The position numbers and the translations under genes are program-made. A stretch of DNA of 64,000 nt from a virus (Duplodnaviria; Heunggongvirae; Uroviricota; Caudoviricetes), in the IMG/VR virus record IMGVR_UViG_3300033153_011579; one strand, written 5' to 3'. Position 1 is the first letter of the stretch. Each line of letters opens with the position of its first letter. This document shows positions 1-53,571 of this stretch, piece after piece. Below the pieces are notes generated by a model. It saw only the letters and a list, made by a program, of their open reading frames with translations, was not told where the DNA came from and made no database searches.

Positions 1-92
1 TCGCGGCGAGGGAGATGGAGCTCGAGCGCATCCGAGATCATTTATACAAGAACAGGGTCGAGGATTTCATCAGGGACGCCAATGGCGACTGA
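1..92 (+). CDS. 3' end of an upstream gene that runs in from outside the window (…MELERIRDHLYKNRVEDFIRDANGD*)
   Basis: Open frame from position 3 to TGA at 90-92; overlaps integrase start as ATGGCGACTGA. Confidence 0.35.
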   Translation, partial: AAREMELERIRDHLYKNRVEDFIRDANGD

Positions 93-969
93 GCAGCTAG
101 CTGCTTTTGAGCGGTTCCTCGAGCGCGGTGCGGCCAGTGGCCGCGCGCTGAGCGCGTCGTCGATCACGACGTACATGAAGGTCGCCAAGCTGATCGTCAA
201 GGCGAAGAAGCCGGAGAAGATTCTGGTCGCCGGGCTGAGCGTTTCTACCAAGACGAAGTACGTGTCTGTGCTGCGGCACTGGGCGGCGTTCACGAAAGAC
301 GCCGAGCTGGCGGAGATGGTGAGCGGCGGACCGCAGCTACAAAAGCTGCTGAAGAACCGTGAGTCGAAACTCCCGCAGAAGATCGAGGCGTTCACCGACG
401 CCGAGGTCGACCGGTTCCTCGAAATCCTGAAGGTGGTCAAGGGTGGCGAGCCGCCGTGGGTGTGGCCGTGTGTGTCGCTCCAGCTTCATCTCGCGCTGCG
501 GGTGAGCGCGGACCTGGCCGGCGTCCGACGGGACGCCGTGGAGAGCGCGCTCGTCACGAAGAAGCTCGCGCTGATGGGAAAGCGAGAGCGGATCGACTTC
601 ATGCCGGCGGGGTTCGTGGCCGAGGAGCTGCAGATGCTTGCCGAGCTCCCAAGCTGGGAGATCGTCGCGGACCTGATGTCGCCGACGACCAGGAAGCTGG
701 GCGAGTACGCCCACCGGCAGAAGGCGTACGAGATGTACGTCAGGGCGATGCAGGTCTTGGGTCCGAAGGCGGGGATCGTCGCGACGAAGACGCATCGGTT
801 TCGCCACTGGGGGATCACGAATTTTATCAAGAAGGTGGCCAAGGGCGACATCAAGCGAGCCCAGAGGTTCGCGCGCCACGCGAGTATCGAGACGACCCTC
901 CTCTACTACAGGACGGTCGACCTCGAGGAGGACGACGCGGCCCTGGCGGAGCTGAAAGGAAGACAATGA
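82..969 (+). CDS. int: Tyrosine recombinase / integrase (XerC/D-like, 295 aa)
   Basis: C-terminal catalytic boxes HRFRHWGIT (H-x-x-R) and ARHASIETTLLYY (catalytic Tyr); N-terminal SAM-like core-binding region. Confidence 0.8.
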   Translation: MATEQLAAFERFLERGAASGRALSASSITTYMKVAKLIVKAKKPEKILVAGLSVSTKTKYVSVLRHWAAFTKDAELAEMVSGGPQLQKLLKNRESKLPQKIEAFTDAEVDRFLEILKVVKGGEPPWVWPCVSLQLHLALRVSADLAGVRRDAVESALVTKKLALMGKRERIDFMPAGFVAEELQMLAELPSWEIVADLMSPTTRKLGEYAHRQKAYEMYVRAMQVLGPKAGIVATKTHRFRHWGITNFIKKVAKGDIKRAQRFARHASIETTLLYYRTVDLEEDDAALAELKGRQ

Positions 970-15528: not shown

Positions 15529-16487
15529 TGCCGACCAGAGCACACATCCAGGCGTTGGCCAACGCGAGAGAGGCTCTCGAGCCGTTCAGCCGGTGGCTCG
15601 TCCGCGGGTGCGGGAAGACCGATGGAGAGGCCGACTTCATCATCAGCTTCGTGTGTCGCGCGCTGTGGACTTCCACCGCCGACGACGACGAGGATCCCGA
15701 CCCGCTCGATTGCCTCTCCGAGCCGATGATCACCCGGCCGACATTCAACAAGCTGAAATCGGCCATCCGGCAGTATTACACCTGGCACCTCGTCCGGCAG
15801 TCGTCGCCACCGAGTGAGAAAGAGCGGGCGAGGCGGCAGCTCAGGCGGCTCGAATCCATCTTGCCGTACGGCGGCGTCGGGAGACGAGCCAAACGGGTCG
15901 CGATCGATGCGCTGTCGCAGGCGGATTTAAAAAAGCTCATGGACGGACTGAAAAAATGGCACGCGGAACAAGGACGGCGATGGCCCTGGAGCTACCCGGT
16001 GATCAGCATGTGCCTGAAGATCTCGCCGGCGATCAGAAACTGTCTGGTCTACCTCTCTCGTGAGGAGCTCGTCCTCGCTCTCGCCGACGGGGTGAACAGC
16101 GGGTCGTTCAACCTGTGGGTCCGCCAGAAGAACGTGCCGGTCATGAGGTCGATCCCCATCGGGCTCGTCTGGAAAGAGGCGGACATGCTCGTCGGCTGGC
16201 CCTGGCAATGGGAGACGCTCCAGGACATTATCTCGTCGTCCAACGCGAGCACCCAGAACTCGGTGAACAAGATCAAAGAGATCTCTTTCAAGTACTATCG
16301 CCACGTCCTGGGAGACATCGGCGACCCGAAGACGTTCTTAGCTCGACTTCGGTATGCCACCTGGGTCTGGCTCTTGAAAAAGACGAAAGGCGACTGGCTC
16401 TCCGTCGCGCAGATCGTCGGGAAGTCGGTAAAGATCCTCAGAAGACGGCCGGAGCTGCTCGAGGTCGTGTCGAGGAGGCTGAACTAG
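15528..16487 (+). CDS. Integrase-like protein with a degenerate catalytic box (319 aa)
   Basis: ARLRYATWVWLLKKTKGDWLSVAQIVGKS resembles box II of tyrosine recombinases (LRHTxAT…G.D…LGHS) but lacks the His and Tyr residues. Confidence 0.35.
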   Translation: MPTRAHIQALANAREALEPFSRWLVRGCGKTDGEADFIISFVCRALWTSTADDDEDPDPLDCLSEPMITRPTFNKLKSAIRQYYTWHLVRQSSPPSEKERARRQLRRLESILPYGGVGRRAKRVAIDALSQADLKKLMDGLKKWHAEQGRRWPWSYPVISMCLKISPAIRNCLVYLSREELVLALADGVNSGSFNLWVRQKNVPVMRSIPIGLVWKEADMLVGWPWQWETLQDIISSSNASTQNSVNKIKEISFKYYRHVLGDIGDPKTFLARLRYATWVWLLKKTKGDWLSVAQIVGKSVKILRRRPELLEVVSRRLN

Positions 16488-17191
16488 TCCGATACGCAGC
16501 GAGTGTACTGAGACTCGGTCTTGAGAGACCCCCACACATAGGCCTCGGAGAACAGGACGCCCCAGGCGTACGCCGGGTTGTTCCCGGGCGAGCTCGACCA
16601 GTGGTACGACCAGCACGGACCGACAAGGTCATCCCCCCAGTAGCACCCGTCCGACCCGGGGCCTTCCAATTCGGCGCACGGATCGCAGTCGGGACCCTCC
16701 GCGCACGGATTCGTCAGGCAGTCGGGGTCGGTCACCCCGCAGTCTACCGACGCGCAGCCGACGATGATTCCCGACAGCTCCTGGATCAGCGGGAGTCGCC
16801 AGTCGTCGCCGAGGGCCTCGCAGTAGTCGACCGCGTCGACCCAGAGCATGAGCTCGGTGCTCGGCGGGTTCTCCCAGCAGAGGTCGCCGTCTAGCCAGCA
16901 GGTGGCCGTGTCGGTATCGGTGTCGGTATCGGTGTCGGTGTCGGTATCGATCACTGTTTCCGTATTGGTTTCGGTATCTTGCGTGTCTGTGTCGATCACG
17001 GTGTCCGTGTCGGTGTCCGTATCGGTCTCGGTGTCGGTGTCACCGTCGGTGTCCGTGTCCGTGTCGGTGTCCGAATCGACGTCCGTGTCGGTGTCGCCGG
17101 CGTCCGGCTCCATGAACGGAGCCTCGGTATCGCCGCAGGCCATCACAATTGCGAATATCCAAATATATCTCATCCTACATCTCCTCCCCAT
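16484..17191 (-). CDS. Lipoprotein with (TD)n repeats and a DUF1566/Lcl-like C-terminal Cys-rich domain
   Basis: Lipobox IVMAC-G, about 35 Thr-Asp dipeptide repeats, WRLP..EL motif; strong SD GGGGAGGAG. Confidence 0.6.
   Translation of the reverse strand: MGRRCRMRYIWIFAIVMACGDTEAPFMEPDAGDTDTDVDSDTDTDTDTDGDTDTETDTDTDTDTVIDTDTQDTETNTETVIDTDTDTDTDTDTDTATCWLDGDLCWENPPSTELMLWVDAVDYCEALGDDWRLPLIQELSGIIVGCASVDCGVTDPDCLTNPCAEGPDCDPCAELEGPGSDGCYWGDDLVGPCWSYHWSSSPGNNPAYAWGVLFSEAYVWGSLKTESQYTRCVSD
16890..17110. repeat. Coding microsatellite (GTCGGT/ATCGGT)n encoding the (TD)n tract
   Basis: Hexamer-periodic repeats visible in the sequence; the + strand alternative frame reads VSVSVS. Confidence 0.8.
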
Positions 17192-17420
17192 GCTGCAGAG
17201 CTCTCAGGGCCTCCCCGAGGTCCATGAACTCCTCGACCAGGCTGACGTCACCGTCCTCGCCGCCGGGTGCCCAAAGGTCGTACGTCCGGCTCGTCTTGTC
17301 GAATATCACGAAGTCGTCCGGCTCGACCGCCTCGAACACGCCGTCCTTGACGACCCCGGTCACCCGGTACTTCCGGCCTCTCTCGTGAGGATCGCTACTG
17401 AACCAAAATCCAATTTTCAT
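17175..17420 (-). CDS. Hypothetical protein (81 aa)
   Basis: ORF with protein-like composition; overlaps downstream gene start. Confidence 0.5.
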   Translation of the reverse strand: MKIGFWFSSDPHERGRKYRVTGVVKDGVFEAVEPDDFVIFDKTSRTYDLWAPGGEDGDVSLVEEFMDLGEALRALQHGEEM

Positions 17421-17596: not shown

Positions 17597-18598
17597 CTAA
17601 AAAGGCGTCTTCCGCTCTGCTGCAGCCCTGATCATACCGTCTATCTCGCTCTTCAGCCACTCTCGCTCTCGCTCGGTCGGCTCCCGCCCCTTCACGCGGC
17701 CCGTGAACCACCCCAAATCGGCCTCCCAGTCGTACTCGTCGGCGAACACCCGGACCACCTGCAGCATCCGGTCTTTTACGTGCGCTCGAGTCAACCTCCC
17801 GCGGGAGATCGGCGCAGGCTTCTCCAGCGTCGCCATCAGCCCGCTAGCGGGTATGTATTCCTCGGACTCGTCCGGCTCGTCCTCTGAGGCCTCGTCGGGC
17901 TCGAGAGGCTCAGAATCGCCCTGAGGGGCGCTAGCGCCCTCTTTACATTGTTCACTAACACTGGAATCGGCGTTGACCGCGTTGATCAGGACAACGTGAT
18001 CGTCCAGCTTGTGCCAGAACGCTTGGACGAGTCCAGAGCACATCGCCTCGTCGAGCTTCTCGTCGTCCTCTTGCAGGCCGGACATCATGACCCGCCGAGT
18101 GTCAGGGTAGGTCGCCTCGATCTCACTCAGCAGACCGAGACCAGACATCCCAGGCATCTCGAAGTCGGTGATGACCACGTCGAACGTCCCGAGCTTGTTG
18201 ATGAGCATGATCGCCTGACTCGCCGAGCTCGCCTGGGTCGTCTCCCAGTCTTTGGGGAGAAGCCGGCAGACCGTCCGCCGCATGATGTCCTCGTCGTCGA
18301 CCACGAGGATGCGCAGGCGTCTCTTCGACGTCCTGGCTTCCGGAGGGTTGGTCCAGGCCCGGCACTCGCGAGCGAGGTTGACGTTCCCAACGCGCTCGGA
18401 GGTCGCGTAGACCGTCTCGATCACGGACTGCCAGAGGCCGCTGCAGGACTCGGGAGGTCCCCAGATCTCCTTCGGCCCAGCTCCCTCGATGGAGCTCAGC
18501 AGCCGGCCCTTGATCGTCGGGTCGAACAGCCCCTCTTTGAGAAACTGCATCGCGACCTCGCGAAGCTCGGGGTCCAGTGGTCGTCTAGATTTTGTCAT
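17597..18598 (-). CDS. Response-regulator receiver (CheY-like) protein with an unknown N-terminal domain and an acidic C-terminal tail
   Basis: ILVVDDEDIM…VVITDFEMPGMSG…RVMMSG receiver signature; motif C immediately upstream of ATG. Confidence 0.7.
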   Translation of the reverse strand: MTKSRRPLDPELREVAMQFLKEGLFDPTIKGRLLSSIEGAGPKEIWGPPESCSGLWQSVIETVYATSERVGNVNLARECRAWTNPPEARTSKRRLRILVVDDEDIMRRTVCRLLPKDWETTQASSASQAIMLINKLGTFDVVITDFEMPGMSGLGLLSEIEATYPDTRRVMMSGLQEDDEKLDEAMCSGLVQAFWHKLDDHVVLINAVNADSSVSEQCKEGASAPQGDSEPLEPDEASEDEPDESEEYIPASGLMATLEKPAPISRGRLTRAHVKDRMLQVVRVFADEYDWEADLGWFTGRVKGREPTEREREWLKSEIDGMIRAAAERKTPF

Positions 18599-18633
18599 TT
18601 CCGCTCTCTTTCTGCCGGAACCACCCGGCTGAT

Positions 18634-18861
18634 TTAGTCGCGCTCGACCGTGACGTCTTCCGCGTCGTAGGTGTGACCGAGGTCTTCCATCTCCATCCCG
18701 ACCTGCTTCTTGAGCTCCTCGTCGCTATCGCTTTGGGTCTGCGACAGGTTCTCGAACGACTCGAGGGCGAGCTGGCCGTCGTCGAGATCGTAACGGACTA
18801 CCCAGCCGCTGTAGTCGTCGGCTTCACCGTCCCAAAGTACTCTGATGTTGCTTGCGATCAT
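18634..18861 (-). CDS. Hypothetical acidic protein (75 aa)
   Basis: Motif C upstream. Confidence 0.6.
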   Translation of the reverse strand: MIASNIRVLWDGEADDYSGWVVRYDLDDGQLALESFENLSQTQSDSDEELKKQVGMEMEDLGHTYDAEDVTVERD

Positions 18862-18903
18862 CTTCCGCTCTCTCTCTGCCGGCGACCAGCCGGCGGTTAT
18901 TCG

Positions 18904-19215: not shown

Positions 19216-19246
19216 TTTCCGCTCTCTTTCTGCCGGAACCACCCGG

Positions 19247-19420
19247 CTAGTTGTCTTTAGATGCCTTGTTTATATGCGGGTACCACTTCTGCTGCCGAGT
19301 CCACATCTCTAAAACCTCGTCGGATGGTTCCCCGTATATGTCCAAGGAACAATCATTGCACTCGCCTTGCGGACCATATGGCTCTGTCAAACACCCACAC
19401 TCTGGACAACAGTTTTTCAT
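19247..19420 (-). CDS. Small Zn-ribbon protein (57 aa), not in ORF track
   Basis: Motif C upstream; MKNCCPECGCLTEPYGPQGECNDCSLD…. Confidence 0.55.
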   Translation of the reverse strand: MKNCCPECGCLTEPYGPQGECNDCSLDIYGEPSDEVLEMWTRQQKWYPHINKASKDN

Positions 19421-19524
19421 TTTTCCGCTCTCTTTCTGGCCGGAACCACCCGGCTCACCAATTTAGACCCTGCACCCTGCTACATATTCACCACATTCGT
19501 AAGTGGTTGATTTTTCTCACCTTA

Positions 19525-20608: not shown

Positions 20609-21295
20609 TTACATTCCGGCGATAAAAGCTGGCGGGCCAGCCCGCGCCACCAGGATCGGGCCGATCTTCGATCTCTCCCGCTTCACCTTCCGGGTCCTGA
20701 CCTTGGGGCCGAAGGCCGACGTCTTGCAATTCCCGGCCTGGTAGCAGGAGAGGGTCCCGACCAGGCTCCCGTCGCACTCTTCCTCCTGGCACCTCTTGAG
20801 CTCGTCGGTACCGGCCGAGAGCTGGCCCTCGGACGTCTTCATGTCGTAGCCCTTGGACAGAGCCTTTTTCAGAACCTGCCCGTGGACTTGCATCAGGCCT
20901 TGCTCTCCGTCTTTCCCATCTCGGATCTTTTCGTAAAAGCTCGATTCGTGGTCGACGACGACGGCCACCACGAGCGGGTCGACCCCGCGCTCGTCGGCAA
21001 TCCTGTCGATCATCGCCGCGAGCTTCGGAGCTCGCCGAGCTCTCTTCTGGTTGAGGGTGACCTCGATGCAGGCGTCTCGCCCTGGGCCTTCCTTCCGCTT
21101 CTTGCACGACGCGCTCAGAAAGCGCTTGATATAGTCCTCGACGTGGTCGGCTGTGACGAGTTTTTGGCCTCCCCAGACCGACGGCTCGTCACCAAGACCC
21201 TTCGACTCGGTCGGCCACGGGATCATCCAGATGACGATCACCACGAGGATGGCGATCAGTAAAAATAAAAAGAATCTGCCTCGCTTGTTCAGCAT
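20609..21295 (-). CDS. Lytic transglycosylase (SLT domain) with an N-terminal TM anchor
   Basis: VVDHESSFYEKIRDGKDGEQGLMQV (catalytic ES…GLMQ motif); SD CAGGAGGAC. Confidence 0.7.
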   Translation of the reverse strand: MLNKRGRFFLFLLIAILVVIVIWMIPWPTESKGLGDEPSVWGGQKLVTADHVEDYIKRFLSASCKKRKEGPGRDACIEVTLNQKRARRAPKLAAMIDRIADERGVDPLVVAVVVDHESSFYEKIRDGKDGEQGLMQVHGQVLKKALSKGYDMKTSEGQLSAGTDELKRCQEEECDGSLVGTLSCYQAGNCKTSAFGPKVRTRKVKRERSKIGPILVARAGPPAFIAGM

Positions 21296-21319
21296 CCGGT
21301 CCTCCTGGGTTTGGGTTTA

Positions 21320-21333
21320 GGCCCCGCGGGGCC
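21320..21333. other. 14-bp GC palindrome GGCCCCGCGGGGCC between the SleB-like and SLT genes
   Basis: Perfect palindrome directly upstream of SLT SD; no U-tract. Confidence 0.6.
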
Positions 21334-21366
21334 CCGCTACAGATTGGATATTGGTAAGCTCGAGCA

Positions 21367-22041
21367 TCACTTTTTCTTCGGCTTGATCATGTTGGAATAA
21401 ACCCACTCGCCGACCTTGTATAGCACGTAGCCGAGGCTCAGGCCGAGAAGCAGATCGACCGGAGTGAGATCTCCGTCGAGGTCGACGTCCTTCAGACTCG
21501 GGTCGATGTCGACGACCACCTTCTTGTTAGTCCACCTGATCCCAGAATCCTGTTTGTCGGTCAGGAAGTAGTGCGTCTTGAAAAAATAGCCGGACTCCCT
21601 CGCGGTCTTGTTGGTGGCGAAGTTGACAAACTGCTGGCCGAGCTCCTGCTTGAGGCCGCCCTCGGCGAACATCGTCGCGTACATCCTCGCCGACATCGGT
21701 ATCTGGTCCCAGGTCCAGCCCTGGATCTCCTTGCGTCTCGCGATCCGGGCGGGGGTGCAGTGGTCCGGGTTGGCCTTGCACTTCGCTCCGTTCGGATTGA
21801 GCCAGGCCGGGTTCGTCGGCTGTGAGAATTTCCTGATCAGGCTCTTGAACGACCGCCACTTGTTGCCCCACCGGAAGAACCGCAGGAACATCGTCCACGC
21901 GAGCGCAGAGGCCTCAGCACGACCGAGGTGCTTGCCGTACCCGCCCTCGCCGGCCAGCGCCTTCGCAAGCCACAGGACGTCGTCGTCGGTCAGCGTGTAC
22001 GACTTCGAATTATCCTCGTACCGGTAGACTGCTCGAGCCAT
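21367..22041 (-). CDS. Putative SleB/Hydrolase_2-like cell-wall hydrolase with a C-terminal TM
   Basis: DDDVLWLAKALAGEGG…AEASALAWTMFLRF resembles the SleB family core. Confidence 0.4.
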   Translation of the reverse strand: MARAVYRYEDNSKSYTLTDDDVLWLAKALAGEGGYGKHLGRAEASALAWTMFLRFFRWGNKWRSFKSLIRKFSQPTNPAWLNPNGAKCKANPDHCTPARIARRKEIQGWTWDQIPMSARMYATMFAEGGLKQELGQQFVNFATNKTARESGYFFKTHYFLTDKQDSGIRWTNKKVVVDIDPSLKDVDLDGDLTPVDLLLGLSLGYVLYKVGEWVYSNMIKPKKK

Positions 22042-26062: not shown

Positions 26063-26266
26063 TCAATCCTCCCTCGTATATTTGTCTAAGAGCGCCTGCT
26101 GCTCCTTGGTGAGTTCTTCTCCGATCTGGGTCAGCATGACGACGTGCCAGAACTCGCACATCTCCCGCTGGGCGTCGTCGCACATTATTTGGAACTCGTC
26201 GGTGATCGTCTCGCCTTCTTCGAGCGGCGGCGCTTTGATCTCGACGGTCCAGGTGATCTCAGTCAC
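26063..26266 (-). CDS. Small acidic all-alpha protein, possible minimal MazG-like fold
   Basis: LEEGETITDEF…QREMCEFWHVVMLTQIGEELTKEQQALLDKY loosely matches the ExxE…ExxE helices of MazG; weak. Confidence 0.25.
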   Translation of the reverse strand: MTEITWTVEIKAPPLEEGETITDEFQIMCDDAQREMCEFWHVVMLTQIGEELTKEQQALLDKYTRED

Positions 26267-27368
26267 GGATCACCTCGACGATCCCTTTGGCAGTTGGTGA
26301 CAAGCTCGCGAGGACCGCATCGGCTCCGGTGACCTCCCTGATGTGCGCCAGGAACTTTGCGTCGTCGTCCATCTTCAAGATCTCGCCGCCGTCGAAGAAC
26401 CGAAAGTCGTCGTTGATGAGGTCGAGGCACGTGACGGCCAGCTCCGGGGTTTTCGTCATGATGTAGTCGTCTTTGTAGATGGCGTAGCTGAGCAGGTCGA
26501 GATCCAGGAGGGTCTTCCTAAATGTTCCCTGGGGGCCGTCGTCCGGGTTCTGCTCGTGTGGATTGTCCTTGATGTTGCAGGGGACGATGTCGCTCATCGG
26601 ACCTTTCCCATGCCGCGTCTGGTAAGCGCGGGTGACGAGCACGATCTCCGGCTCGTATCCCATCTCGCAAATATTTTTCGACCCGGTGTTCGTCGGAGTG
26701 ACGTATGGAAAAAAACCAAAATTCTGGTCGAGCAGCAGGCCTTGCGACCCTTCCCAGATAACCGTTTCGAACGAATCGATGACCTGCTCGTTCGACATCC
26801 CGATGGCCGCGTTGTGTGTCACCTCGTCGCACGCGACGAAGAAATTTTGGATGATGTAGTCGTCCGGTCTGAAGCCGTAGTATTGATAAAACTGCTCCAT
26901 CTTCATCCGCATTATTCTCGGGTGGAACAGGTCTTCGAACAGCAGGTGATGACCCTCCCGCTCTCTTTTGACGGTCGCGAAGATTCCGACCTCACAGCTG
27001 CCGCCGAAATCGGAATTCCGCTTATTCCACTCGATTTCAAACGGCGTGGTGACCGGGCACCTGTGGTCGACGAGGAGTCGTGGGAAGACTTTTTTCACCA
27101 GCAAGACGTCGAGCTCGTTCATGAGGGCGACGGGGTTGACCGAGCAGTATTTCGACCAGAAGGTCGGGACGCCTCGGAACGACCCGCTACCGAAATGAGA
27201 AAATACGTGAGACCTACCGTCCTCGAGCACCACCTGATGCGCGGCCTGGTGGCCGCCCGAGAACCGCACCACGAGCTCGGCCTTGTTGACGTCACAGAGG
27301 TAGTCGACCAGATGTCCTTTCCCCTCGTCCCCAAAGCCGAGCCCGATGACAGCGATGTGCTTGGTCAC
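26259..27368 (-). CDS. purZ?: Adenylosuccinate-synthetase-family enzyme (PurA homologue; candidate PurZ/PurZ0)
   Basis: N-terminal MTKHIAVIGLGFGDEGKGHLVDYL…VVRFSGGHQAAHQV matches the PurA P-loop and GGHNAGH signatures. It is 369 aa versus about 430 for bacterial PurA. Confidence 0.7.
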   Translation of the reverse strand: MTKHIAVIGLGFGDEGKGHLVDYLCDVNKAELVVRFSGGHQAAHQVVLEDGRSHVFSHFGSGSFRGVPTFWSKYCSVNPVALMNELDVLLVKKVFPRLLVDHRCPVTTPFEIEWNKRNSDFGGSCEVGIFATVKREREGHHLLFEDLFHPRIMRMKMEQFYQYYGFRPDDYIIQNFFVACDEVTHNAAIGMSNEQVIDSFETVIWEGSQGLLLDQNFGFFPYVTPTNTGSKNICEMGYEPEIVLVTRAYQTRHGKGPMSDIVPCNIKDNPHEQNPDDGPQGTFRKTLLDLDLLSYAIYKDDYIMTKTPELAVTCLDLINDDFRFFDGGEILKMDDDAKFLAHIREVTGADAVLASLSPTAKGIVEVIRD

Positions 27369-28219
27369 AGGATCTCCTCGCCGTCGGAGGGATCCGTCGC
27401 GCTGGACCGCCGCGTCGTTTTTCCGTAGTTGGCCAAGATCGTCGAGGCGATCGTCCCGGCGACATCCGTGTGGCGCTGGGCCGGCAGGAGGTCGTCACCG
27501 ATGAGCGCCTTCCACGAGTCGACCGTCTCGGGCTGGCTACCGCGGGCGGTCTCCGAGATGTTGATGTGAAAGACGTGGTACTTCTCACGCGCCGACTCGA
27601 GCAGCTCTCGGGACGTGACGTCCTGGTACTGGCCGGGGCCCATGATCTCCTGCAGGTCGCGGCTTGCTAAGCCGTTGAGGACCGGCTCGTCGCCGATGGT
27701 GAACAGGAAGCCGGGCTTGTTCCTATTTTTAAGGCAGTCGATCGCCGTGTGTCTCGCGGCGAAATACCAGGCGAGCATGTAGCTCTCGCCCTCGTTCCCC
27801 CCGCCGTGGCCTTCGAGGTAGACGTCGGTCAGCCAGCGGTCGAGCAGGTCGTCGCTCGATTCGAACTGCCCGACCTGGAGCGGGGCCTCGTCGCACGTGT
27901 GGTCGCCGATGGCCAGGAACAGGACTTGCGGGTCCTCGACGCCCTTGGCGATTATGGTCTCCATGATCTGCGGCAGCCCCTTCTTCACGAGCTCGTGCGG
28001 GACCGACCCCATCGACCCGGTGACGTCGAGCGCGATGATGATCGCGAGCGAGTTCGGGTGCTCTTCGGAATCGCACGACTCGCGTAGCGTGATCCCGTGG
28101 GGGCTCATGGCGTTGTGGATCGTCCGCTGCTTGAAGATCTGCTCGCGAGGGGCGTGTACGTAATTTAGCGACTCCGACCTCACAGCGCGGGCTGTGCTGT
28201 TGTATGTTCCGCCGCCCAT
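27365..28219 (-). CDS. von Willebrand factor A (vWA) domain protein
   Basis: MIDAS motif LAIIIALDVTGSMGS; start relocated to ATG 28219 with SD GGAGGTGAG. Confidence 0.55.
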   Translation of the reverse strand: MGGGTYNSTARAVRSESLNYVHAPREQIFKQRTIHNAMSPHGITLRESCDSEEHPNSLAIIIALDVTGSMGSVPHELVKKGLPQIMETIIAKGVEDPQVLFLAIGDHTCDEAPLQVGQFESSDDLLDRWLTDVYLEGHGGGNEGESYMLAWYFAARHTAIDCLKNRNKPGFLFTIGDEPVLNGLASRDLQEIMGPGQYQDVTSRELLESAREKYHVFHINISETARGSQPETVDSWKALIGDDLLPAQRHTDVAGTIASTILANYGKTTRRSSATDPSDGEEIL

Positions 28220-28220
28220 C

Positions 28221-28562
28221 TCACTCACCTCCAAACAGGTAGTCGTATCGCTTCTGGGCGATGTCCAGCTTGATCTCGGTGTTCCGGATCTTCACGCCGA
28301 GCTCGACGTCCTTGGCGACGTACTCGTCCGAGTTGAAGTCGCTGGCGAGCACCAGGCTGTCGGCCGAGGTGGGGGACAGGTCGAGCATGTTCTCCTGCTC
28401 CCTCGCCATCTTCCTTATCTGTAATTGCAGGTCTTCGATCCGCCGCTTGTAGATCAGCTCCGTGTCCTCGCCGATAGCCTCGGCTCGGTCGTTGCGGATC
28501 TTCTTGTTGTTGCGCTTCAGTGAAGACAGAAACGCGCCTTCTGTTTTCTCTTCTTCAGTCAT
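28221..28562 (-). CDS. Hypothetical coiled-coil protein (113 aa)
   Basis: ORF. Confidence 0.5.
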   Translation of the reverse strand: MTEEEKTEGAFLSSLKRNNKKIRNDRAEAIGEDTELIYKRRIEDLQLQIRKMAREQENMLDLSPTSADSLVLASDFNSDEYVAKDVELGVKIRNTEIKLDIAQKRYDYLFGGE

Positions 28563-32839: not shown

Positions 32840-33718
32840 CTACCTCTTGGCCGGCGACACTACAGGAATCGAGCTCCCCTCGCCCGTGGCGATGACCTTG
32901 TCGCCGGGCCCGACGCGTTTATAAAGCGTCTTCTTGGCTTCGATCTCTCGCAGCGCAAGGTACTTGTCGGTGAGCGCGCCCCCCATGATCTTCACGTAGA
33001 CCGCCTCGGACTCCGCCTCGGCCGTCCTGACCGCCTTCATCTTCTCGGCGACCTTCAGCCGGTTGTCGGCCTGGAGCAGCTCCATCGCCTGCTTCGCCTT
33101 CTCCTCGTCGATCTCGATCTCTCGCCGGCGCTTCTTTTCGACGGCCTTGGTGATGACCTCCGGGTAGTCGAAGTTCGAGGTGACGACGCTCACGAGCTGC
33201 ATCGGCGTCCCCTTCAGCGAGGCGTGCAGCTGCTTGTGAATCTCTTTCTGGATCGCGTCCCGGTTTTCTCTGATCTGCGTCGTCGAGTATTTGCTCACGA
33301 TGCCACGCGCGATCGACCGAGCCTCGGGCTTCACGTACACGTTGTACAAGCTCTCGAACCCGAGTGCCGCCGCGTCGTACTCATCCCATCGCTCCATCTT
33401 CGACCCCTGGCGATTCAGGAGCTCCTTGATCGCAGATCCGTCTGCCGAGACCAGCCGCGTCCTCGTCACCAAATTGAACCTGAAGTTCAGGTCGTCCGAG
33501 CACAGGACGCTCATCTTCTCCTCGATGGCGTCCTCCTTCGTGTCGACCAGCTGCATCGAGTCGCGACCCCAGCACCCGTGGTGACCGGGTTGTAACACCT
33601 CGCCCGTCAGCCCTCCCGGGGTCTGTACCATCCCCACCCAGCCCGCAGGAACTACCTCGTTGCAACCGATGACCAAAAACGCCGCCAGGAACATTCCCAA
33701 AACACATGCTGATTTCAT
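32840..33718 (-). CDS. SPFH/Band-7 (stomatin/prohibitin-like) lipoprotein
   Basis: Lipobox LVIGC; SPFH region …KAVEKKRRREIEIDEEKAKQAMELLQADNRLKVAE…; start at 33718 (ATGA overlap, SD AGAGAGG). Confidence 0.6.
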   Translation of the reverse strand: MKSACVLGMFLAAFLVIGCNEVVPAGWVGMVQTPGGLTGEVLQPGHHGCWGRDSMQLVDTKEDAIEEKMSVLCSDDLNFRFNLVTRTRLVSADGSAIKELLNRQGSKMERWDEYDAAALGFESLYNVYVKPEARSIARGIVSKYSTTQIRENRDAIQKEIHKQLHASLKGTPMQLVSVVTSNFDYPEVITKAVEKKRRREIEIDEEKAKQAMELLQADNRLKVAEKMKAVRTAEAESEAVYVKIMGGALTDKYLALREIEAKKTLYKRVGPGDKVIATGEGSSIPVVSPAKR

Positions 33719-34077
33719 TGCCGAGCCTCTCTTTCTTCGGTGGTGAAGTCCACCTTGGAGCCACCGCGAACGCACGCGATGACTTGTTTGAGTTCTGCGA
33801 TCACAAACCGACCGAGACCGATCCTGTCGAGGTCGATGATGAGGGGCGGTGTCGTGTAGCCACGATCGTTGATCCTCACACGGAAGTTAACCCAGTCGCC
33901 GACCTTCACCCTGGTAAACCACCCGCGCACGGCGACCACCTCCCCGCGGAGGGTGTTTGTTTTCTCCGAGAATTTATCTCCGCAGTCGTCGGCGTGGATC
34001 CGCACGATCATCGACTTTCTCGGCATCGACGTGACGATGCCCTTGATGTCCTCCCTCTGAATTTCTCTATCGGCCAT
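33715..34077 (-). CDS. Putative OB-fold NfeD-like partner of the SPFH protein
   Basis: GEVVAVRGWFTRVKVGDWVNFRVRIND beta-rich segment; sits between a membrane protein and the SPFH gene. Confidence 0.35.
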   Translation of the reverse strand: MADREIQREDIKGIVTSMPRKSMIVRIHADDCGDKFSEKTNTLRGEVVAVRGWFTRVKVGDWVNFRVRINDRGYTTPPLIIDLDRIGLGRFVIAELKQVIACVRGGSKVDFTTEEREARQ

Positions 34078-37780: not shown

Positions 37781-38246
37781 TTTGGCATCGCCGCGTCAGG
37801 GTGCTCTGGCCGATCTTCTCTCCACTGGAGAGTTACTCCCGATGGTCCTGGTCGCCCTCGGCCTGGCGATCGTCATCACGTGCACCAGGGCCGGCTACCC
37901 GCTCCGCTTCCTGTGGTGCATGCTCTTCAACTTCCGCTTCACCAGGTGGCTCTGGAACCTCGTGCTCTGCCCTCACTGCTGCTCGTTCTGGACCGGCTTC
38001 GCCGTTGGGTATGCGGTCACGGGTGACTGGATAAAAACCATACAGATCGCCGTCACGGCGTGCGGCGTCATGTACGTGCTCCAGAAGACTTTCTCACGAG
38101 ACCGCATTGTCGCCGCCGACCGTGTCCACGGCGACAGGTGGGTCTTGGATGTTCGCGGCGTAGCGTTTGAACCCCCTGAGGATTTCGAAGAGATCCTCGG
38201 TATAAAAAACGGTTTGAAGGAGACTCCAGATGACGAAGATGGGTAA
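37773..38246 (+). CDS. Polytopic membrane protein (157 aa, probable TTG start)
   Basis: SD AAAAGGAG 7 nt upstream of TTG; three hydrophobic helices. Confidence 0.5.
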   Translation: MINLASPRQGALADLLSTGELLPMVLVALGLAIVITCTRAGYPLRFLWCMLFNFRFTRWLWNLVLCPHCCSFWTGFAVGYAVTGDWIKTIQIAVTACGVMYVLQKTFSRDRIVAADRVHGDRWVLDVRGVAFEPPEDFEEILGIKNGLKETPDDEDG

Positions 38247-40275
38247 ACAACTCGGGGAAGCACTCGAAAAGAGCTTCGACAGAACCATCAGGGATTTCAG
38301 AACCGAGAGCCGGTCCACCGGCACCACGGGCCTCGATGCGCTCGAGCAGCTCGGGAGGGAGTTCGAAACCGTCAGCGTCAACATACATAGGAAAAACGAG
38401 CACGGTAAGTACACCCTGTTCTCTCCACTCGAGGGCGTGGCCGTCGCCGACCTCCTGCAGCAGGGGTACGACGTCTTTTGCAAGAACGAGGGCGGCGAGG
38501 GCGACTACAAGGTGGAGGTTGTCATCCCGGCGAAGGAGCCGGGGAAGCCACCCGTCCGTCGCTGGGAGGGGCCGTTCATCGTGAGCGGCACGCCGCGGCT
38601 CGAGGTCTCCAAGACCGAGATGTCCAAGCAACAGAACAGTTTCGGATTTCCGTTCAACATGATGAGCGGCCTCCCCGCGAACACCGCCGCCGCCGGCAAC
38701 CAGGGAGGAGCTCCCTACGTCCGCGACCTGCTCCAGCAGATGAACAAGTCCTCCGAGAGCCAGAACAACATGGTGCAGCAGATGATGGGCCTCATGATGA
38801 TGAAGGACATGATGCCCGGCGCGGACCAGAAGAAGAACGGCGAGACCGACGCCAATAACCCGGCCGTGCTCGCGCTCCAGACCCAGGTCAGCGAGGTGAC
38901 CCGACGGCTCGACGACGAGCGCCGACGGTCGGAGGACGACCGCCGATCTCGAGATCAGGAAAAGCGTATCGAGGCCGCCGAGCGACGCGCCGAGGAGAAC
39001 CACCGAGAGGTACTCCGCCTGCTCGACAACAACAAGACCACCGAGACCATCGAGCTCATGAAGCTCCAGCGCGACGGCCAGGGCTCCAAGGACGACTCGT
39101 TCCTCAAGCTGATGGCCATGAACCGTGAGGATTCCAACCAGTCCCAGGCGCGGTTCGACGGGCTCATGATGAAGCTGTTCGACAAGCCAGACGGCGTCGA
39201 CCAGAGCTCGAAGGTCATGGGCATGATGATGGAGTCGTCCGTCGCCCAGCTCAACATGATGACCCAGATCGCCGCGAGCGGTCTCGCCGGAGGTTCCGAA
39301 AACCCGTGGATCGACCTCGTCCGCGAAGGGGTCGGCACGGTCAAGGAAGGTTTCAAGGGCGTCCTCGCCATGAAGTACGGCATCGACATGGACGGCGACG
39401 ACGAGGACGGCGAAGATGGCGAAGAGGCCCCGGCCCCCCTCACCCAGCACGTCCCGCCGGCGAAGATCGAAGCGCGGACCGACCCGGAGACCGGAGAGGC
39501 GGTACCGGAAGAAGCACAGACCACCGTCGACCAGCCGGCTCCAGAAGAAGACACCGAGGACGAAATCCCGCAGAGCGCGCTCGACGACGCCGACGAGCTC
39601 AAAAAATACATCCTCACCGACGACGAGCTCACGGGGCTCGCGCAAAACCGGCAGACGCAAAAAATCCTCAAGGCCGTCGAGGAGAAGGACTATCCGCAGG
39701 CCACCGCCCGGATCTTCGAGCGCGTCCGTGGCAAGTCGCCCGTCCACAAGCGCTGGCTCAAAGCCCCCGGCCCGCTCACCGCGCAGATCCTCACGCACTT
39801 CGGGCTCACGCACCACATGTTCGCGATGACCCAGAACCTGATCGACTTCATCGGCCATATGAACGGCGGTGGAAATCCGAACGACTGGTCCGAGAACTAC
39901 AAGCCGGTCAAGGAAAAGAAGGAGAGCAAGATGAAACCCGACAACCCCGCAGCCACCGAGCTGGGCGTGACCATGGGCGAGCGCAAGGAAGGCGAGGACT
40001 ACGACGCGTCGAAGGTTCCCGACGATCCCAAGCTGGCCGAGCTGGCCGAGCAGCAGCGAGCTCTGCGCGAAGAGAAGAACGTGCTCGACCAGATGGAGCA
40101 GATCGAAGAGAACATCGGGTTGCTCAAGGAAGGGAAGATCGACCCGCAGCGCGCGGCGTTCCTGCGCACGGAGAAGAAGCTCCCGGCGTCCGGAGAAGAG
40201 GACGAGGCGCTCAAGGAGATCGCAAAGCTGCGGCACGACATAAAGAAGCAGCAGGCCGAGGAGGGGAGGGCTTAA
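38230..40275 (+). CDS. Large acidic, Met-rich, coiled-coil protein (681 aa)
   Basis: Protein-like composition, Met-rich blocks MMGLMMMKDMMPG and MGMMMESSVAQLNMMTQ, long acidic linker. The antisense 722-aa ORF has artefact composition. Confidence 0.7.
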   Translation: MTKMGKQLGEALEKSFDRTIRDFRTESRSTGTTGLDALEQLGREFETVSVNIHRKNEHGKYTLFSPLEGVAVADLLQQGYDVFCKNEGGEGDYKVEVVIPAKEPGKPPVRRWEGPFIVSGTPRLEVSKTEMSKQQNSFGFPFNMMSGLPANTAAAGNQGGAPYVRDLLQQMNKSSESQNNMVQQMMGLMMMKDMMPGADQKKNGETDANNPAVLALQTQVSEVTRRLDDERRRSEDDRRSRDQEKRIEAAERRAEENHREVLRLLDNNKTTETIELMKLQRDGQGSKDDSFLKLMAMNREDSNQSQARFDGLMMKLFDKPDGVDQSSKVMGMMMESSVAQLNMMTQIAASGLAGGSENPWIDLVREGVGTVKEGFKGVLAMKYGIDMDGDDEDGEDGEEAPAPLTQHVPPAKIEARTDPETGEAVPEEAQTTVDQPAPEEDTEDEIPQSALDDADELKKYILTDDELTGLAQNRQTQKILKAVEEKDYPQATARIFERVRGKSPVHKRWLKAPGPLTAQILTHFGLTHHMFAMTQNLIDFIGHMNGGGNPNDWSENYKPVKEKKESKMKPDNPAATELGVTMGERKEGEDYDASKVPDDPKLAELAEQQRALREEKNVLDQMEQIEENIGLLKEGKIDPQRAAFLRTEKKLPASGEEDEALKEIAKLRHDIKKQQAEEGRA

Positions 40276-51753: not shown

Positions 51754-53571
51754 ATGGGTAACGAAAAGGGGCAGGAGCCCAAAACCCCTTCGAAGAGGAA
51801 GATGAACGACCGGAGGGTGACGCAGGCCCAGGTCGGCGTCGAGCAGCCGACCGACCGCGACGAGGGTTGGGACGTCTCGAAATTCCGGCAGATCATCTTT
51901 TCGATGCACCCGGTCGACCCGGACATCGACGACGTGGGTGCCGTCGGCTGGATCGCGTACGTCAAGGTCTGGCGCTTCAAGCTCGCCAACCGCTGGGGTA
52001 CCGGCAGCTCGGGAGGACAGTGGTACGCCGAGGACGAGCTCATCATCTCGATGGACGGCGATGTCGCGAACGGCGGCCCGATGGAGTACCAGCTGCCGAC
52101 GTGGAACGCCGAGAAGATGTTCTTCCAAGTGGTGCTCTCCGAGGGCGGTCCCGATACGTGGCAAGCCGCGCAGACCATCTCCGGGCTCGTCCCGCAGTCG
52201 TGCGAGTGCGAAGCGGACGTCGGCAGTATCGGTGGCGGCGGTGGGTCCGGTGGAATCGTCGTCTCGAACCTGTTCGATCTGATGGCCCACAACGACTACA
52301 CGTACAGCTCGCTTCGTGGCGATTTCGTCGCCACCAGGATTGCCGCGAACTCCATCCTGGTCAGCGGGCTCGACTTCGCGGTCGAAGAGCGGCAGATCCT
52401 GGCGATCGGCCTCAAGCGCTCGGGGACAACGTCCAGAACGCGCATGTGGTATCGCGACGACACCCTGCGTGTCGACTACACGCCAGGAACCTCGCTCATC
52501 GTGCACGCTGGCTTCACCAGCGACGCCCTGGACGAGGTGATCGTCTTCCTCGAGGGACCGTCCAAGGTGGACGACCCCACGAACCGAGCTCGACGCAACA
52601 AGACCGTCAACCCCGACCCGAAGCATGTCGCGACCGACGGGATTTTTCTCGACATCACGAAAGCCGAGCAGGCCGACGACGATTATTTCCCGTTCATGAT
52701 GAACCAGGACGGCTACCACTGGCTGTCGACGATGATCACCCTGACCGAGGACACCGTCGTGACGCTCGAGGCGACAAACGACCTCGCAGCGGACGGTGCC
52801 GAGGAATGGTACGACGTCACCGAGGAGGTGCTCGGCGTCGCCTCGGTCACCACGGCGAACGACGACCAGGCCTTCCCACCGCAGTGCTGGGTCGGCTGGC
52901 GACGGATGCGCTGGGTGGTCGGTGAGACCGGCTCTGGCGGTACCTGCAAGCTCTACATGCTGAGATCGGCCTATGGCAACCACTGGGTGCCCGTCGCCCG
53001 TGAGGGCCTCCCAGCGCTCCATGGCGGCCTCCCGGTGATGGGCGAAGCTCGAGCTGTCCAGGCCCCGGCCATCGCCGCGCTGTCCGCTGGGAAGTTCGTC
53101 ACGAACCTCTTCAAGGAGCTCGTCGGAGCAGCCTTCGACTGGGCCGTCGGAGCAGACCGCGGAGAAGAGGTCGACCCCGTCGACACGCGGGACTACACGA
53201 ACGTCATGGCCGAAGTCACCGGCCAAGGGGATGGTGATTTTTACTACTACCTCGACATGGCCCACTTCACAAAAGTGGGCATCCAGATCGAGAACGTCGA
53301 TGGAATAGCCGGCGACAACACCTACACGATCCATGGCTCGGAGCAGGACGACGGTACTGCACCGAACGCCGTTATCTACCAGGACATCACGCAGTTCGGG
53401 TGTGACAACATGAGAGCAGCCAACGCCGCGAACTACACGGCGGACGTCCTGTTGCAACTGAACGCCGCCGGGCTCTCGTACAAGTGGATCATGGTTCATG
53501 TCGAGCGCGCCAATGATGGCGCAAACACCGACGGCGAGTGGACCATCCTCGCCCGTCCGCTCTACCACTAG
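51754..53571 (+). CDS. Large putative spike/receptor-binding protein (605 aa)
   Basis: Largest late ORF, Gly-rich linker SIGGGGGSGGIV, beta-rich; no NTPase motif. Confidence 0.6.
   Translation: MGNEKGQEPKTPSKRKMNDRRVTQAQVGVEQPTDRDEGWDVSKFRQIIFSMHPVDPDIDDVGAVGWIAYVKVWRFKLANRWGTGSSGGQWYAEDELIISMDGDVANGGPMEYQLPTWNAEKMFFQVVLSEGGPDTWQAAQTISGLVPQSCECEADVGSIGGGGGSGGIVVSNLFDLMAHNDYTYSSLRGDFVATRIAANSILVSGLDFAVEERQILAIGLKRSGTTSRTRMWYRDDTLRVDYTPGTSLIVHAGFTSDALDEVIVFLEGPSKVDDPTNRARRNKTVNPDPKHVATDGIFLDITKAEQADDDYFPFMMNQDGYHWLSTMITLTEDTVVTLEATNDLAADGAEEWYDVTEEVLGVASVTTANDDQAFPPQCWVGWRRMRWVVGETGSGGTCKLYMLRSAYGNHWVPVAREGLPALHGGLPVMGEARAVQAPAIAALSAGKFVTNLFKELVGAAFDWAVGADRGEEVDPVDTRDYTNVMAEVTGQGDGDFYYYLDMAHFTKVGIQIENVDGIAGDNTYTIHGSEQDDGTAPNAVIYQDITQFGCDNMRAANAANYTADVLLQLNAAGLSYKWIMVHVERANDGANTDGEWTILARPLYH

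Follow-up and report, generated by a model that had tools for sequence, protein, structure and literature searches.

What is a receiver of two-component signalling doing in a phage-like genome, and what would it switch there? The question is raised by a 64,000-nucleotide stretch of DNA (hereafter the window; IMG/VR virus record IMGVR_UViG_3300033153_011579, Caudoviricetes), whose minus strand carries a complete response-regulator-like coding sequence at 17597..18598 (333 amino acids, with the stop codon at 17597-17599, as given by the listing of open reading frames, ORFs). The protein consists of an N-terminal extension, a CheY-like receiver, an acidic tether and a basic C-terminal domain. We read it as an orphan response regulator belonging to a small phage-restricted family, in which a host phosphodonor would phosphorylate Asp145 and thereby switch the tethered C-terminal domain, a reading that we hold with about even confidence.

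The receiver (REC, CheY-like domain) occupies residues 96-210 (17969..18313, minus strand) and was recognised by Pfam, by matches in the PDB, by AlphaFold2 and by Foldseek. An earlier note, made from the letters of the DNA alone, had claimed a complete receiver with the DD…D…T/S…K pattern, and this claim held in profile search, structure model and alignment. Pfam Response_reg (PF00072) matched residues 97-191 at 56.6 bits, well clear of the cutoff of 30.2 (E = 3.5e-15), and phmmer against the PDB sequences gave 97 receiver matches. AlphaFold2, given an input alignment of 43 receiver proteins, modelled a (beta-alpha)5 fold, with strands alternating with helices, at a predicted local distance difference test score (pLDDT) of 89-98 over residues 96-170 and 73-81 over residues 171-210. 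When the model was compared with solved stand-alone receivers in Foldseek, the target-normalised template modelling scores (TM-scores) were 0.74-0.85.

CheY binds Mg2+ through the pair D12/D13 and accepts the phosphoryl group on D57, the site being completed by T87 and K109. The equivalent set was complete in the window protein, as D101/D102, the phospho-acceptor D145, S173 and K197. Both D101/D102 and D145 were invariant against the 43 receiver proteins and in the six-member family described below, confirming that the phospho-acceptor is retained in alignment. D145 lies within the motif VVITDFEMPG and its codon, read from the sequence as GAC, is at 18164..18166 (minus strand), marking the predicted site of phosphorylation. 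Position 173 is S in five members of the family and T in one, whilst K197 and W195 are invariant across all six. A plain MAFFT alignment placed His196 in the column of the conserved Lys; this was rejected on the basis of the HMMER alignment, which set K197 against the conserved Lys of PDB 3kcn. The 3kcn-type subgroup of receivers has one extra residue between the conserved Gly and Lys, and K197 is therefore the conserved lysine. Judged by sequence and model together, the receiver is of canonical fold and has every residue required for Mg2+-dependent phosphorylation of Asp145, and every feature of the REC superfamily that can be tested in this way was found. It makes up 115 of the 333 amino acids, so the protein is not of the single-domain CheY type.

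What such a receiver would control probably lies C-terminal to it. Residues 211-266 (17801..17968, minus strand) form an acidic Pro/Glu-rich tether that is predicted to be largely disordered (AlphaFold2 pLDDT < 50 over residues 212-272), with 16 Asp/Glu against 3 Lys/Arg and an isoelectric point (pI) of 4.1; over residues 211-262 the counts are 16 against 2 and the pI is 4.05. The tether is followed by a conserved basic three-helix domain, a putative output domain, at residues 267-333 (17600..17800, minus strand). The earlier note had described the whole C-terminal region as strongly acidic, which is right for residues 211-262 but wrong for the last ~70 amino acids, as these form a structured and conserved stretch of basic character, with a pI of 8.4-9.4 that varies with the boundary chosen. 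In structure prediction the tail was modelled confidently as a three-helix bundle. It carries the motif GRLTRAHV-x17-DW-x3-L-x7-K.R.PT[DE]RER.W, and 13 of its residues are invariant in the family (R268, L269, R271, H273, W291, L295, K303, R305, P307, R310, E311, R312 and W314). On these predictions, the tail is likely to be the output domain of the protein.

The tail did not fall into a described class of output domain. A Pfam search with the whole protein, taken up to E = 1, returned Response_reg only, and none of Trans_reg_C, GerE, sigma54-activator plus HTH_8, or LytTR was recognised, which leaves the protein outside the classical classes of DNA-binding regulator. The C-terminal domains of five members gave no Pfam match better than E = 0.055, and Pfam and PDB profile searches directed at the function of the tail were negative or uninformative. 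Matches of the tail to chemokines (E ~0.3) were dismissed as chance, and no informative paralogue of the tail was found in the window or in the related loci.

Relatives of the protein were found by way of this tail. Searching 1.84 billion representative sequences with residues 243-333 in phmmer recovered four true relatives besides the protein itself, and a profile search with the full-length family alignment added a fifth, P0056, and nothing else. The family comprises the window protein, P0048, P0049, P0050, P0051 and P0056, and is defined by the C-terminal motif following a Pro/Glu-rich acidic linker, together with a receiver bearing an F/x-W-x-K motif. Against the C-terminal 91 amino acids of the window protein, the relatives gave E values from 1e-09 to 8.5e-05. 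All five are metagenomic proteins, shorter than the window protein (216-257 amino acids), and consist of an N-terminal receiver, a linker of 33-62 amino acids and a tail of ~67 amino acids; they are 28-39% identical to the window protein and keep D101, D102, D145 and K197. The linker is present in 6/6 members within the same range of lengths, alike in composition and unconserved in sequence, and the pattern of charge is kept throughout, with a pI of 4.1-4.3 for the tether and 8.3-10.8 for the tail. Homologues of the tail were found solely in this receiver-tether-tail architecture.

One further protein, P0047 (741 amino acids, from an ENA metagenome), matched the tail at E = 2e-10, but at least 11 tandem copies inflate this score and we treated it as unrelated. 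It is built of near-identical units of ~60 amino acids, each repeating a weak W.ADL.WF...GR match, and is possibly a translated DNA tandem repeat. No further member and no host was found in IMG/VR, in JGI metagenome contigs or in GTDB species genomes. GenBank phages gave no match in a DNA search and matches to the receiver only in a protein search. With six proteins among about 15 billion, the family is rare.

The five relatives all lie in phage-type gene strings. Locus L001 encodes a phage sliding clamp (phrog_947, 2e-40), L002 has a divergently oriented block near the regulator that includes a tape measure protein, L003 has an endonuclease V-like gene (Pyr_excise), and L005 encodes an ERF recombinase, an HTH_17 protein and a DNA methylase. 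Two of these loci share genes with the window. Upstream of the regulator in L003 are homologues, in the same order, of the window gene at 21367-22041 (224 amino acids, the upstream neighbour of the SLT-domain gene; 32% identity) and of that at 20609-21295 (the SLT-domain protein; 51%), such that window 20609-22041 (minus strand) corresponds to L003 8-1671. Downstream of the regulator in L001 (3051-3290) is a homologue, 44% identical, of the 81-amino-acid gene that lies downstream of the regulator in the window (17175-17420, minus strand). By sequence, these shared genes define a loosely syntenic, previously unsampled group of apparent phages with a GC content of 57-62%, and the family is seen so far in phage-like contigs only.

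Beyond these shared genes, conservation does not extend to the genes next to the regulator, and there is therefore no evident partner gene. The earlier note had remarked that no cognate histidine kinase was nearby, and indeed no Pfam or NCBIfam match to HisKA, HATPase_c or Hpt was obtained among the 105 ORFs of the window. The loci of the relatives gave none either, which makes the regulator an orphan.

These observations suggest how such a protein might act. Asp145 would be phosphorylated by a host phosphodonor, whether a histidine kinase, an HPt protein or acetyl phosphate, and phosphorylation would change how accessible the tethered basic tail is, or in what oligomeric state, and hence what the tail binds. 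Its target would be a macromolecule, with nucleic acid or a component of the transcription apparatus as the most natural guess because of the cluster of invariant Arg, Lys, His and Trp residues in the tail. A tyrosine recombinase/integrase gene at the edge of the window (82-969, plus strand; phrog_1, 2e-11, with Pfam Phage_integrase below its cutoff) suggests a temperate element, and the output may therefore feed a decision on lysis-lysogeny or on the early programme; the phage would in this way tie its early programme or lysis-lysogeny choice to a physiological signal of the host. The two roles considered in the earlier note, interception of host two-component signalling and a phospho-dependent switch for the lytic programme, would each be consistent with these observations, as hypotheses.

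Several points weigh against this account. Phosphorylation of D145, the phosphodonor, the target and the host are inferred rather than observed. The case for conservation is built on just six members, which is a thin base. In no member of the family does Pro follow the conserved Lys, K-P being the common arrangement, and position 194, where receivers usually have an aromatic switch residue, is F, T or A; signal propagation may therefore be atypical. Lastly, PHROGs, Pfam and NCBIfam recognised no capsid, portal or terminase family in the window.

A bolder version of the same account seems to us possible rather than probable. Here the family would let temperate tailed phages sense directly the state of a host kinase or phosphorelay. 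Host-dependent phosphorylation of Asp145 would free the basic tail from its acidic tether, the freed tail would act on transcription of phage or host and so set the lysis-lysogeny or early-late decision, and in this phage the N-terminal domain would serve as a second input or for docking. Signals of host or phage origin are known to reach phages through quorum-sensing receptors and arbitrium peptides. If the version were true, direct reading of a kinase by a phage receiver would be the phospho-Asp counterpart of such quorum-sensing and arbitrium eavesdropping.

Among the explanations that compete with the switched-output reading, the one that survives best is that the protein is a phosphate sink or decoy, which we nevertheless think unlikely. 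The phage receiver would then compete for phosphoryl groups with a host regulator or with the receiver of a hybrid-kinase phosphorelay, shutting down a host response (development, motility, envelope stress or defence), and the role of the flanking domains would be confined to docking or localisation. The best receiver matches do include receivers of hybrid histidine kinases (P0002, P0003 and P0005, 34-36% identity), the NCBIfam models EspA, EspC, CckA and TorS match, and an orphan that has no output domain of a known class and no kinase in the window would fit such a role. However, hybrid-kinase receivers are common matches for any generic REC query and are unspecific, and a pure sink would have no need of a C-terminal domain so strongly conserved, with its 13 invariant residues.

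Rather less credible is a phosphorylation-independent adaptor or scaffold, in which the receiver fold would act as a protein-binding module and so bring the C-terminal domain together with a partner from host or phage. There is precedent for this, as RssB and CpdR are ClpXP adaptors and the receiver fold is also a binding module in atypical receivers. The absence of Pro after the conserved Lys and the deviation of position 194 from canonical receivers agree with such a function, and NCBIfam matches include the RssB and CpdR models, though far below their cutoffs. Atypical receivers, though, usually lose some of the phosphorylation residues, whereas the DD, D, S/T and K positions are all kept in six divergent members of the family, the signature of selection for phosphochemistry.

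A different objection concerns the DNA itself. Were the window an island from a bacterial genome, or a piece of chromosome binned by mistake, the gene would be an ordinary orphan regulator of the host. The lack of a capsid, portal or terminase match in 64 kb fits this, and neither IMG/VR nor the GenBank phages contained a related contig. The rest of the context makes it very improbable. The ~110 ORFs of the window are for the most part small, lie close together and fall into three strand blocks (plus to ~16.5 kb, minus to ~36.2 kb, then plus). Besides the integrase it encodes a replication-initiator PHROG, a phage-type PurA-like enzyme and GP88, and many of its genes match PHROG-only families; the relatives of the regulator gene adjoin a tape measure protein, a phage clamp and ERF. 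Moreover, 185,579 species genomes contained no relative of the SLT protein or of the lipoprotein near the regulator. That the gene is virus-encoded, as the earlier note had it, is thus borne out by context (integrase, PHROG families and the phage-type neighbours of the relatives) and not by hallmark genes.

The N-terminal extension (residues 1-95; 18314..18598, minus strand) is predicted to be all-helical and has no detectable homologue. No relative was found in Pfam, PHROGs, the PDB sequences or 5.8 billion proteins, nor did any other protein encoded in the window or at the related loci match, so the ~95-amino-acid domain of unknown type proposed in the earlier note retains that description. 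AlphaFold2 placed helices at residues 10-21, 27-39, 42-46, 54-70 and 73-83, with a pLDDT of 55-73 on what was effectively single-sequence input. The extension is missing in P0048-P0051 and P0056, which start directly at the receiver, and from these sequences the predicted helical domain is lineage-specific, particular to the window protein.

That residues 1-95 are a decayed and functionless HATPase_c plus linker, left from a captured host hybrid histidine kinase, is hardly believable: BLASTP alignments to P0002 and P0005, both hybrid kinases, begin at query residue 14 and extend into the kinases' G2-box region, and the NCBIfam EspA model aligned over residues 26-174, but residues 1-96 alone scored -0.5 bits against P0002 (E 3.7 in a 46-sequence set) with no PDB match, the AlphaFold2 model is all-helical, unlike the alpha/beta ATP-lid part of HATPase_c, and the relatives begin at the receiver, pointing to a receiver-first ancestor with the extension added later. 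Three other origins for the extension were also rejected. Weak phmmer alignments to alpha2-beta3 and alpha4-beta5 of REC (E ~3) hinted at a degenerate second receiver, which was ruled out as no strands are predicted. An HPt domain, a four-helix bundle with a phospho-accepting His, was discarded as residues 1-95 contain no histidine and gave no Hpt match in Pfam. Fusion with the gene upstream of the relatives' regulators was discounted, there being no similarity to those upstream genes.

The extension is taken to be part of the gene. ORF 17597-18598 has a GC content by codon position of 0.63/0.45/0.80, which is the pattern of the well-supported genes of the window, and the third-position value of its first 95 codons (0.81 against 0.80 for the whole ORF) indicates that the N-terminal part is coding too. 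A JGI metagenome protein, P0001 (317 amino acids, on an 82,351-bp contig), is identical from Met17 on, the JGI call having picked the second ATG.

The choice between the two starts is informed by a 5' leader of ~33 nt that the gene has in common with three others. At 18599..18631 (minus strand) a 6-bp GC hairpin (GCCGGG-UGGU-UCCGGC) is followed by a purine tract, AGAAAGAGAGCGGAAA, with the ATG immediately after. Four copies of this leader, at 18599-18631, 18862-18894, 19216-19248 and 19422-19454 (all minus strand), stand one at each start codon of four consecutive genes, the three preceding the regulator starting at 18861, 19215 and 19420. The genes encode a 57-amino-acid Cys-rich ORF, an ORF of ~103 amino acids, an ORF of 75 amino acids and the response regulator. 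The 16-nt core of the leader occurs 4 times in the window where 0.24 occurrences would be expected by chance. On folding, the hairpin formed in 4/4 copies with the purine tract unpaired or mostly unpaired, and in the second copy the closing G.U pair is replaced by C-G, a change on both sides. As the leader shared with the three preceding genes stops at the Met1 ATG (18598), this comparison of sequences favours Met1, and the 333-amino-acid form, over a Met17 start. An Rfam scan of the window, leader included, gave no match. The leader may be a common translation-initiation, RNA-processing or operator element. The first of the four leader genes (19247-19420, minus strand; MKNCCPECGC...C..C) has two Cys pairs and resembles a small zinc-ribbon protein.

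Other genes that could be recognised in the window are those for a GroES, a thioredoxin, a GDSL lipase and an SPFH/Band 7 'lipoprotein' (32840-33775, minus strand; phrog_200, 8e-38). No tRNA genes, as markers of an attachment site, were present in the window. The PurA-like protein at 26259-27368 (minus strand) is a phage-type adenylosuccinate synthetase (phrog_1211, '2-aminooxy adenylosuccinate synthetase', 1e-51); the NCBIfam model purA (1e-31) beats PurZ (6e-10), and identity to Rhizobium and Mycobacterium phage genes is ~34%. A phrog_2971 protein (1e-42) is encoded at 27365-28234 (minus strand); its gene and that of the SPFH/Band 7 protein are well-supported accessory genes within one minus-strand block. 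One gene downstream of the regulator, at 16484-17191 (minus strand), is the predicted lipoprotein, with an Lcl C-terminal domain (PF07603, 7e-12) and a long DTDTDT repeat that is encoded by 12- and 18-nt tandem DNA repeats at 16889-17125. The same-strand block at 36466-64000 (plus strand) encodes large proteins (681, 605 and 446 amino acids among others, e.g. at 38230-40275 and 51754-53571), two of which carry Laminin_G_3. PHROGs, Pfam and NCBIfam gave no capsid, portal, terminase or tail match in this block. The largest proteins of the window gave no family match, and tblastn of the 605-amino-acid protein against GenBank phages found nothing. If this block is a structural module, the lineage would be a very divergent one.

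Compared with canonical response regulators (CheY, Spo0F, HupR and RpfG-type receivers), the window protein shares the fold and the five active-site residues. Its closest solved structures are stand-alone or N-terminal receivers (3kcn, 3jte, Vibrio CheY3, HupR and PorX), and both the G-x7-K spacing and the hydrophobic-F/W-x-K motif resemble the 3kcn and RpfG-type subgroup. It differs from them in the lack of a kinase in the window, in an output domain of an undescribed class, in the non-Pro residue after the Lys, in the invariant W195, in the extra N-terminal helical domain and in its phage-like genome.

Receivers have been annotated in viruses before, as in phrog_731 and phrog_5982, in 'response regulator' proteins of uncultured Caudovirales, in the CheY-like CDS-30 of Alteromonas phage V22, and in the hybrid kinases of giant viruses and phaeoviruses. 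CDS-30 of V22 was listed as a class II auxiliary gene for signalling (PMC7289586, Table 2). These have in common with the window protein a viral receiver domain and no obvious partner kinase, but they lack its C-terminal motif, and structural matches in BFVD cover the REC part only. The cREC of jumbo phages is a divergent receiver with a proposed role in cyclic-phosphate processing, linked to genes for processing NAD+/ADP-ribose (Iyer et al., 2021, PMC7824862). It is likewise a phage-borne receiver fold outside a histidine-kinase operon; the window protein, in contrast, scores far over the Pfam cutoff for the canonical Response_reg model, and the Pfam matches of the window include no macro, Nudix, ART or similar family of the kind that accompanies cREC. 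VqmA of vibriophage VP882 is a phage homologue of a host signalling protein that monitors host signals (PMC10274711). The parallel is one of concept only and not of homology, VqmA being a quorum-sensing receptor and transcription factor and the window protein a phospho-Asp receiver. A literature search, incomplete in its coverage, found no experimentally characterised phage-encoded response regulator or phage-owned phospho-Asp receiver.

A viral CheY-like protein as such has already been annotated elsewhere; what is new is the receiver-tether-tail family in phage contexts, together with the additional N-terminal domain of the window protein. The family is very rare and its practical value is limited for now. 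Across divergent phages it keeps the whole set of phosphorylation residues and an output domain of its own. The repertoire of response regulators gains one more output domain, and the family offers experiment a concrete candidate for eavesdropping by phages on host two-component signalling, or for its sabotage.

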